Below are positions 32,640-33,487 of a DNA stretch of 36,654 bases, one piece after another (position 1 is the first letter of the stretch; each line of letters opens with the position of its first letter). Made by a program: the position numbers and the translations under genes. The stretch is taken from the IMG/VR virus record IMGVR_UViG_2609459834_000011, positions 1 to 36,654 of that record; one strand, written 5' to 3'. The notes under the pieces were generated by a model. That model saw only the letters and a program-made list of their open reading frames with translations, made no database searches and was not told where the DNA came from. The stretch comes from a virus. Taxonomy: Duplodnaviria; Heunggongvirae; Uroviricota; Caudoviricetes.

Positions 32640-32990
32640 ATGAAAAAACTCATCCTGATGATTGCTTGCAGCTCTTTTGTCTTGGCGGGCGTGGCTCATG
32701 CTGATTCCCAGTGTGGGCCTTTCCACTTGGGCACGAGCCCGACAAATGATGGATGGGCACGCATTAACGGTGCGAAGCCTGAAAGTCAGAAGGTAACGTT
32801 CCTTAAGCAAAAAGAAGACTACGAGAACATTAAGATGGAATGGCGCATGGCTACTGACCAGCCTGGCCGGTGGGTAGGGCTCGAATACATCAAGCGTAAC
32901 GGCAAAGCCATTCTCAATGCTCAGTGGTTGCAAGCCAGTATGGATGCGCCGCGGCAGTATGCAACATATGATTGTCGAAAAGTAAAATAG
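32640..32990 (+). CDS. Secreted small protein (signal peptide), probable moron inside the baseplate cluster
   Basis: 116 aa; MKKLILMIACSSFVLAGVAHA signal peptide with AHA cleavage site; mature part has two Cys; no obvious SD; followed by a perfect hairpin. Confidence 0.5.
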   Translation: MKKLILMIACSSFVLAGVAHADSQCGPFHLGTSPTNDGWARINGAKPESQKVTFLKQKEDYENIKMEWRMATDQPGRWVGLEYIKRNGKAILNAQWLQASMDAPRQYATYDCRKVK

Positions 32991-33008
32991 CCCGCCAGAT
33001 AGGCGGGC
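32990..33008. terminator. Perfect hairpin GCCCGCC-AGATA-GGCGGGC between convergent moron genes (likely bidirectional terminator)
   Basis: 7-bp GC stem overlapping the stop of the plus-strand gene and 6 nt from the minus-strand gene stop; T-rich on the minus-strand side. Confidence 0.45.
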
Positions 33009-33013
33009 AAGCG

Positions 33014-33304
33014 TCAAAAATATTGAGCCTTAATTATAATAAACACAATAATCACGAACAGGATGTTTCGGATTATTTTTTGCGTCGGGGTAAGTTGTTT
33101 TTTTACTGTCGATTTCCCTGGTGAGTAAAGATTCGTTGTATGCGACAACCCCGTGCCGGGAAGGCTATTTGTCATCTTTACGCCTTTTTTTCCGATATTA
33201 ATGGTGGAACCTTTACCACCAATTGAAGTGCTAACTCCACTTTTGCTAATGTTTATCGCGAGTCCTGGTGCAATTCGGATTCTTTTGCGAAATCTAAAGC
33301 CCAT
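33014..33304 (-). CDS. Small Gly/Ser-rich protein with C-terminal hydrophobic helix (DUF4236-like?)
   Basis: 96 aa; MGFRFRKRIRIAPGLAINISKSGVSTSIGGKGSTINIGKKG... then IIRNILFVIIVFIIIKAQYF; AT-rich; antisense to the surrounding tail genes. Confidence 0.5.
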   Translation of the reverse strand: MGFRFRKRIRIAPGLAINISKSGVSTSIGGKGSTINIGKKGVKMTNSLPGTGLSHTTNLYSPGKSTVKKQLTPTQKIIRNILFVIIVFIIIKAQYF

Positions 33305-33487
33305 TTGTTACTCCTGTAGAAAAGTTTTTGCATGTTTCACTCAACGAATTGTTGCAAATATATCCTAATACACCTTGTAAATGTGTGCCATTGCAGCGGA
33401 AAATCCTTACCTGACACTGATGTAGCTTAGTTACTAACAGATAATTGATATCAAACCAGCTTCGGCTGGTTTTTTTATGGAGTTTTT

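Follow-up and report, generated by a model that had tools for sequence, protein, structure and literature searches.

Why would a phage carry a gene on the opposite strand in the middle of its baseplate module? The question is raised by a 36,654-nucleotide stretch of viral DNA (IMG/VR record IMGVR_UViG_2609459834_000011, positions 1 to 36,654), here called the window, which comes from a lambdoid, Brunovirus-like temperate myovirus. Between its baseplate hub and spike genes lie sec, encoding a 116-amino-acid (aa) exported protein (32640-32990, plus strand), and a convergent gene for a 96-aa DUF4236 protein (33014-33304, minus strand; Pfam PF14020). An initial annotation had read both genes, the hairpin between them and the AT-rich DNA beyond as a single insertion of lysogen-expressed cargo. 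The features that it listed are all present where it placed them: the signal-peptide open reading frame (ORF), the perfect GC hairpin, the convergent minus-strand ORF and the AT-rich spacer. Comparison with related phages redraws the boundaries of the insertion, and the locus is probably a dedicated moron slot, a terminator-bounded position within the baseplate module that holds accessory cargo.

An exchangeable slot lies between sec and the spike gene

Related loci (n = 92) were drawn from E. coli genomes, GTDB genomes and IMG/VR, and slot classes were counted in 89 sec-anchored loci. The order of hub, sec homolog, gap and spike is kept in every related locus, with the hub gene 5' of sec wherever the sequence reaches far enough left. 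In full, the arrangement is fixed as hub, sec, variable cargo, intrinsic terminator, and then the spike ribosome-binding site and gene. The gap from the sec stop to the spike start is hypervariable: we found about 21 mutually unrelated sequence classes as well as an empty site of 62 nt, the latter in Rahnella (L010) and in L039. Slot length ranges from 0.06 to 1.7 kb, and the guanine-plus-cytosine (GC) content of the cargo is 0.34-0.46, compared with about 0.55 in the flanks. On the left, similarity between classes is lost just past the sec stop; on the right, it is regained from TTTTTTTATGGRGTTTTT-ATG onward. Only about 32991-33470 of the window is swappable.

The DUF4236 minus-strand cassette occupies this gap in 18 of the 89 loci, the window included, and about 20 other cargo classes occur elsewhere. 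These include three different signal-peptide proteins (128, 106 and 129 aa), two kinds of Phd/Doc toxin-antitoxin pairs, a P22-type antirepressor (P22 Ant) and several orphan genes. The proposed insertion thus stands for the minus-strand gene and its spacer, which are exchangeable, and falls for sec, a core gene found in every relative. The comparison with syntenic prophages that the initial annotation had suggested gives the same division, since the cassette is absent from the two empty sites and replaced elsewhere while sec is never absent. An antisense gene within a tail module had also been called unusual; at this site minus-strand cargo is found in about 30% of loci, made up of the DUF4236 class and a second class described below.

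Neighboring alleles are mixed rather than inherited as a block. The sec allele of the window, in copies that are 95-99% identical, accompanies five or more different cargos, and at least four sec alleles accompany the DUF4236 cassette. Spike and sec alleles do not co-vary either, as in L013 and L014, which share a sec allele and differ in their spike alleles. These mixed pairings indicate that sec, cargo and spike reassort freely. Set beside the definition of a moron given in PMC3594210, the DUF4236 cassette shows patchy presence at one position, deviant base composition and a terminator of its own.

Two of the other cargo classes bear weak resemblances to conflict systems. The second antisense class encodes a membrane protein of 116-122 aa (L009, L014, L019, L020, L029, L053, L058, L061 and L041) with a weak match to Pfam EACC1 (3e-5) and another to PADLOC SngB (0.002), and may be a stand-alone piece of a conflict system. 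A two-gene cargo (258-261 aa and 123-130 aa; L023, L067, L068 and L031) has no family assignment; an R..NEADY motif and a weak HEPN_IX match (E 0.004) in its second protein make the two genes a candidate toxin or defence pair.

A terminator closes the slot

The right boundary of the slot is a plus-strand intrinsic terminator at 33453-33476, AAACCAGC-ttcg-GCTGGTTT followed by a T-run, which the initial annotation did not mention. It abuts the spike ribosome-binding site (GGAG, 33479-33482), with the spike ATG at 33488, and is the only plus-strand match with a perfect stem and an uninterrupted T-run in the structural region of the window (16.7-36.6 kb). No promoter would fit between the T-run and the ribosome-binding site, so transcription of the spike gene must cross the terminator.

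A GC hairpin lies immediately 5' of the spike ribosome-binding site in all 94 loci, the empty site included, and in nearly all of them it is followed by a T-run. The slot-closing hairpin is also found in Salmonella phage SEN34, in Mulock and in a Klebsiella phage. Its sequence is far from constant, with about six stem cores in 49 unique sequences (CCCGC/GCGGG, CCAGC/GCTGG, GCCGC/GCGGC, GTCGCA/TGCGGC, GCCCAC/GTGGG and CCCTCAC/GTGAGGG). The third pair from the loop shows compensatory pairing, being C-G in 37 sequences, A-T in six and G-C in five; these counts were taken from structure-anchored hairpins, the MAFFT alignment of the terminator being out of register for some rows. Stem type follows cargo class, which suggests that the terminator tends to be exchanged along with the cargo, and the element is never lost.

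An Rfam scan of 32400-33700 returned only sub-threshold matches (Trp leader, isrK and rsmX), all of them on this hairpin. A candidate Hfq-binding small RNA in the spacer, isrK (RF01394), was rejected at 21.8 bits against a gathering cutoff of 50, its match being driven by the terminator hairpin.

The antisense gene encodes a predicted membrane-anchored protein

Within the slot of the window, the cassette (about 32991-33470) is AT-rich, lies on the opposite strand and has its own strong ribosome-binding site and its own terminator. The ribosome-binding site, AGGAG at 33311-33315, is 6 nt before the minus-strand ATG and had been overlooked in the initial annotation. The terminator is an all-GC 7-bp hairpin, GCCCGCC-agata-GGCGGGC (32990-33008), which on the minus strand is followed by a T-rich tail, TATTTTACTT. 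This hairpin overlaps the sec stop codon and is confined to cassettes of the DUF4236 class. Upstream of the gene is its AT-rich 5' region (33305-33452, minus strand). The whole spacer to the spike start (33305-33487), put at about 180 bp when first described, measures 183 bp with a GC content of 0.355, and the base composition suspected there is borne out by the neighbors: 0.392 for the DUF4236 gene, 0.499 for sec, 0.538 for the hub and 0.563 for the spike.

The protein matches PF14020 with an E-value of 2e-20 and 73.4 bits, against a gathering cutoff of 27, and the match covers the full domain (residues 3-55 on profile positions 1-54 of 55). In the NCBIfam scan it had no match. The earlier description of a Gly/Ser-rich protein with a C-terminal transmembrane helix is accurate, as there are 11 Gly and 9 Ser among its 96 residues and hydropathy places a hydrophobic anchor at residues 77-95, where an AlphaFold2 (AF2) model has a helix (73-95). 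Residues 1-76 contain no Asp or Glu, carry a net charge of +14, and include an 18-residue internal repeat (GLAINISKSGV and GSTINIGKKGV). In the AF2 model the DUF4236 domain is a six-stranded antiparallel sheet, with a predicted local distance difference test score (pLDDT) of 77. A C-terminal hydrophobic anchor is present in 41 of 41 aligned homologs, while the sequences of linker and anchor differ. In Vibrio homologs, SH3 domains follow the anchor, an extension that fits a cytoplasmic N-terminus and a periplasmic C-terminus. The prediction is thus of a basic beta-sheet domain in the cytoplasm that a C-terminal helix, in the manner of a tail anchor, holds to the inner membrane.

The gene is functional. 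Its ORF is intact in more than 40 loci, domain and anchor are kept at 40-60% identity from genus to genus, and selection on it is purifying: the ratio of non-synonymous to synonymous substitution rates (dN/dS) is 0.03-0.05, cassette variants differing by 22.5 synonymous and 4.5 non-synonymous changes. The ribosome-binding site and terminator of the cassette complete this picture.

We also observed a conserved element of about 35 nt, AAGCCGCCATAGAGTGGACCTGCACCATCGCAT, in the 5' leader of most DUF4236 cassettes, the variant in the window not among them (L098, 2880-3000). DUF4236 copies borne by siphoviruses share a close version of it, AAGCTGCCACAGAGCGGCCCCGCCCCATCGCAT (L127 and L165, 2880-3000). 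This element could be a regulatory leader or an operator that travels with the gene.

DUF4236 relatives recur in other tail modules

The DUF4236 gene is not confined to close relatives of the window. It occupies the same slot, also antisense, at 50-58% identity in L124 and L140-L154, where the hub is only 62-64% and sec 36-39% identical, suggesting that it is an old and recurrent tenant. Outside the slot, lambda-like siphovirus prophages carry it antisense between the tape measure, which a lipoprotein gene follows, and gpM-L-K, a Pseudomonas syringae prophage has it between gpK and gpJ, and another siphovirus has it between the tail chaperone and the tape measure, which is the position of HK97 gene 15. 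The combination of DUF4236 with a C-terminal anchor is one of several architectures in the family; others add periplasmic SH3 or FtsK-gamma domains. In the literature searched, DUF4236 receives a single passing mention, in unrelated work.

In the four viral-contig loci outside the slot whose flanks were read (L127, L129, L147 and L158; positions 3001-4200), the DUF4236 gene converges on a gene for a small lipoprotein or secreted protein. These partners mirror the pairing of sec with DUF4236 and look mutually unrelated.

sec is a core gene outside the exchangeable segment

The other small gene of the locus has a different history. The sec ATG (32640) follows the hub stop codon (TAA, 32634-32636) after 3 nt and has no Shine-Dalgarno sequence, much as in the first description, which put the start 4 nt after that stop. 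A sec homolog stands directly after the hub stop codon, or overlaps it, in all 92 related loci. Homologs at 33-50% identity occupy the same position in Salmonella phage SEN34 (Brunovirus), in the Klebsiella phages Mulock and ST340-VIM1phi10.1, and in others. The gene is under purifying selection, with amino-acid identity of 0.83-0.95 where third codon positions are only 0.46-0.65 identical, and its GC content is only slightly shifted toward AT. Because it is present in every relative examined, coupled to the hub and under selection, sec falls outside the insertion; it is a core gene of the phage family, translationally coupled to the hub and conserved within the late operon.

The N-terminus of the protein, MKKLILMIACSSFVLAGVAHA|DS, parses as MKK-LILMIACSSFVLAGV-AHA|DS, the n-h-c organization and AxA cleavage motif of a Sec-type signal peptide cut by signal peptidase I, and its most hydrophobic 15-residue window (residues 4-18) scores 2.51. 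The signal peptide is kept as a feature in 39 of 39 homologs, though its sequence varies. In contrast, the C-terminal half of the mature protein is nearly invariant and two Cys are fully so. Homogenization by recombination was considered as the cause of this conservation and is ruled out by the diverged synonymous sites in that half. An AF2 model shows an eight-stranded up-and-down beta-barrel (pLDDT 86.5). By sequence, sec belongs to PHROG phrog_3443 (3e-46), a family without assigned function, and has no Pfam, NCBIfam or PADLOC match; the NCBIfam result came back empty although RefSeq names one sec homolog "STY1065/STY2022 family". Literature searches turned up nothing relevant on that family, and nothing informative on this locus in work on SEN34 and Brunovirus. 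Compared with periplasmic lysozyme inhibitors of the PliC/MliC type, sec showed neither membership of the sequence family nor a strong fold match.

Coupling to the hub implies that the protein is made late, and export makes it an unlikely part of the virion. Most likely it is a late-made periplasmic protein that acts on the envelope or on incoming phage tails. A role like that of Spackle, or in receptor masking, would be a reasonable guess, judging by systems already described.

A weak promoter-like sequence, TTTATA-17-TATACT, lies inside the 3' end of the hub gene (32509-32537, plus strand) and matches the consensus at 9 of 12 positions, a level found at chance frequency. Both hexamers are unchanged in 12 of 13 DNA variants, in contrast to the variable spacer between them. 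They are also constrained by Val-Tyr-Ile and Tyr-Thr codons, and in distant relatives become TACACT. We did not accept it as a convincing promoter, its conservation being inseparable from coding constraint; as a lysogen promoter for sec it is a possible lead.

Genomic setting and late transcription

The locus sits in a typical contractile-tail baseplate set. Ahead of it are a tape measure with an SLT (lytic transglycosylase) domain (28629-30644), a Dit-like protein (30644-31270), a plug of the Pam3-gp18 type (31267-31572) and the baseplate hub (31575-32636, plus strand), the conserved left flank, which matches the PHROG phrog_196 baseplate hub at 4e-83 and Pfam E217_GP41 at 7e-6, below cutoff. 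The conserved right flank is the baseplate central spike (33488-34228, plus strand; Pfam spike N-terminal domain 9e-42, Apex motif 4e-7), and beyond it lie a sheath-initiator-like 117-aa protein (34457-34810) and baseplate J (34811-36010).

Between the spike and the sheath-initiator gene (34229-34456) there is a further small variable insert. It consists of a hairpin with a T-run (about 34247-34279) and a 45-aa membrane ORF with a GTG start (34316-34453; phrog_6632, 3e-21). It accompanies only one spike allele (e.g. in L001, L003 and L008). In L002, L005 and L006 there is no such insert and the spike abuts the next gene, and in SEN34 a 45-aa ORF is found at the equivalent position.

The early and late control region of the window is lambdoid, with a NinI-like phosphatase, a RusA-like resolvase and a Q-like antiterminator (13545-14288; phrog_753, 1e-57), followed by holin and endolysin genes. 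Between Q and the lysis genes are a pR'-like promoter, TTGAAA-16-CATAAT (14262-14289), and a strong terminator (14371-14396), and a second terminator stands just 5' of the holin gene (14532-14549). In E. coli, the nearest relative is a prophage that lies between dacD and sbcB of strain LR-71-1 (NZ_AP027599.1, 1,122,515-1,125,172); its annotation lists CI, Cro, CII, O, Nin genes and an "antitermination protein". Late control in the window is in the lambda style, with a Q allele that differs from that of this relative.

In lambda, Q-modified RNA polymerase ignores intrinsic terminators. With a Q homolog in the window, this established biology suggests how the slot might work. During lytic growth, Q-modified polymerase from pR' would read through the slot terminator and the baseplate genes would be made normally, and in the lysogen, transcription starting in or near the slot would be halted before the spike and wedge genes. 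In the lysogen the slot would then be shielded from the baseplate genes beyond it, and in lytic growth it would be transparent, which would be a classical moron design. The DUF4236 gene, antisense to the Q-antiterminated late operon, needs transcription of its own, and this fits expression in the lysogen.

Proposed function and alternatives

What, then, might the cargo do? Its position antisense to the late operon, the strong purifying selection on it and the occurrence of its relatives beside tape-measure and tail-tip genes of unrelated prophages led us to propose an exclusion role. By analogy with HK97 gp15, the DUF4236 protein may be an inner-membrane protein that the lysogen expresses and that keeps the genomes of superinfecting phages from entering, a specific assignment that we make tentatively and that is itself more doubtful than the moron slot.

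A wider version seems to us somewhat less probable again. Here, anchored DUF4236 proteins would be widespread, unrecognized injection blockers linked to tail modules, the slot would be purpose-built for cargo exchange, and sec would be a Spackle-like inhibitor of the SLT domain. From its place at the inner membrane, on the cytoplasmic side, the basic beta-sheet domain would intercept the tape-measure/DNA conduit of an incoming phage; the layout of hub, sec, terminator and spike would let Brunovirus-like phages swap envelope or defence cargo without disturbing baseplate expression; and the conserved periplasmic barrel of sec would inhibit the SLT domain of the tape measure.

Several observations weigh against the moron slot and the exclusion role. 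The spacer had been thought probably to carry promoters; 33305-33487 contains no consensus sigma-70 promoter on either strand at a threshold of at least 9 of 12 matches. The best spacer candidate of a lenient scan is the weak ATGGCA-18-TAGGAT (minus strand, 33391-33362), and neither the DUF4236 gene nor sec has a consensus promoter in standard or lenient scans. One distant lineage, the L140 type, has the slot-closing hairpin without a T-run. In the P. syringae and chaperone/tape-measure contexts the DUF4236 gene is co-directional with the tail genes and could be expressed late. The more remote DUF4236-anchor proteins are encoded on chromosomes or on other mobile elements, outside tail modules, which limits the tail association to the phage-borne gammaproteobacterial branch of the family. 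PADLOC-DB 2.0 gave no defence-family match for sec or DUF4236 and nothing significant among 16 alternative cargos, and there was no informative fold match and no relative by sequence in the PDB. The functional assignment is therefore drawn from context. Finally, sec is universal and hub-coupled, and its role may therefore lie in the lytic cycle and have nothing to do with lysogenic conversion.

Some of these same facts would suit a different explanation, in which both small genes are tail or baseplate accessories, such as assembly chaperones or minor virion proteins, and not host-directed cargo. The universality of sec, its place between hub and spike and its coupling to the hub are what one would expect of such a gene, as are the persistence of DUF4236 in the same slot of divergent relatives and its co-directional position among tail genes in two other phage types. 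We nevertheless consider this improbable. The predicted cleavable signal peptide in all 39 sec homologs takes the protein out of the cytoplasm, where tails assemble; about 80% of close relatives, as well as the empty-site phages, lack DUF4236, which is hence dispensable; and in the window it runs opposite to the late transcript. A sequence search against the chains of solved structures, virion structures included, matched neither protein; the E217 virion was among those searched, since the hub matches E217 gp41. The initial annotation had itself named universal carriage together with evidence of a virion component as one outcome that would speak against cargo; sec is indeed universal, though unlikely to be part of the virion, and the DUF4236 gene is not universal.

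Alternatively, DUF4236 could be a toxin or abortive-infection effector controlled by a plus-strand antisense or divergent small RNA that ends at 33453, a type I-like toxin-antitoxin or addiction module. The slot often holds toxin-antitoxin cargo (Phd/Doc, HEPN-like), a plus-strand promoter-like site lies antisense within the DUF4236 gene (33023-33052) with the plus-strand terminator downstream of it at 33453, and the spacer gives weak Rfam matches to Hfq-binding or terminator-containing RNAs (33393-33475; isrK at 21.8 bits, E 0.037). Against this, the Rfam scores are far under gathering, promoter-like sites occur at chance frequency, and the terminator belongs to the slot and not to this cargo, being present in the empty site and with every other cargo. 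In addition, the 96 aa of this protein include a soluble domain of 76 residues, unlike type I toxins. We rate this a little below the structural alternative. Least credible of all is that the cassette is decaying junk, the passively carried and non-functional remnant of an old insertion: although no function, promoter or known family beyond the DUF can be assigned, this is already contradicted by the purifying selection described above, and the intact ORFs, the strong AGGAG site, the cassette's own terminator and the conservation of domain and anchor across genera all speak against it.

For the moron slot, which we prefer, the practical consequences are several. The slot is a precisely bounded and easily searched hotspot, with the sec 3' end on the left and the terminator and spike ribosome-binding site on the right, and the enterobacterial prophage family that carries it is a common one. 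About 20 uncharacterized small envelope, toxin-antitoxin or conflict-type genes become candidates for phage exclusion or lysogenic conversion. DUF4236, a Pfam family without a function that is found repeatedly beside tape-measure and tail-tip genes, gains a first testable hypothesis, and a universally conserved exported protein, modeled as a beta-barrel, is flagged in the baseplate operon.

Comparison with known systems

The closest parallel is HK97 gene 15, the first moron described, whose product gp15 is an inner-membrane superinfection exclusion protein that blocks genome injection (Juhala 2000, Cumby 2012; PMC3594210). Like gene 15, the DUF4236 gene is a small addition to the tail operon of a lambdoid, Q-dependent phage, with atypical base composition, its own terminator, a product predicted here to be a small inner-membrane protein, and homologs also outside prophages; one of its relatives occupies the exact gp15 position between tail chaperone and tape measure. 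The moron definition of Juhala and Hendrix, as given in the same source (PMC3594210), also includes a promoter of the gene's own, for which the window offers as its one candidate the weak ATGGCA-18-TAGGAT, and expression from the repressed prophage. The two proteins are not related by sequence, since one is DUF4236 and the other YebO, and Pfam and NCBIfam scans show no gp15/YebO homology. The gene in the window also differs in being antisense and in lying between the hub and spike of a myovirus, and the bulk of its product is predicted to be a basic cytoplasmic beta-sheet domain with a C-terminal anchor. Exclusion, established for gp15, is for the DUF4236 protein a suggestion by analogy.

For sec, the nearest counterparts are phage exclusion proteins that act at the envelope and are encoded beside tail genes, namely T5 Llp, phi80/N15 Cor and T4 Spackle, the last of which inhibits the cell-wall hydrolase on the tail spike of an incoming phage. 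The sec product is likewise a small exported protein encoded by a phage, and the tape measure in the window has an SLT domain. In contrast to these proteins, sec is not a lipoprotein, shows no sequence or significant fold similarity to them, and is universal in its phage family rather than accessory.

At the level of the whole locus, the P2-like cargo hotspots Z/fun and old-tin (Rousset 2022, summarized in bioRxiv 10.1101/2024.10.15.618418) offer the best comparison. In both cases a fixed position in the structural region of a temperate myovirus, with conserved tail or baseplate flanks, receives unrelated accessory or defence genes that interchange. The phage family of the window differs in combining a lambdoid early region with a Pam3/E217-type baseplate, and its slot is flanked by hub-sec and spike, is short, ends without exception in a terminator joined to the spike ribosome-binding site, and holds mostly uncharacterized small envelope proteins and not known defence systems. 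Cargo hotspots in the structural modules of temperate phages are thus already known, as for P2 Z/fun (bioRxiv 10.1101/2024.10.15.618418), and this locus is a well-delimited further case. It leaves the general picture of morons unchanged, and adds to it a clean example and a set of candidates.

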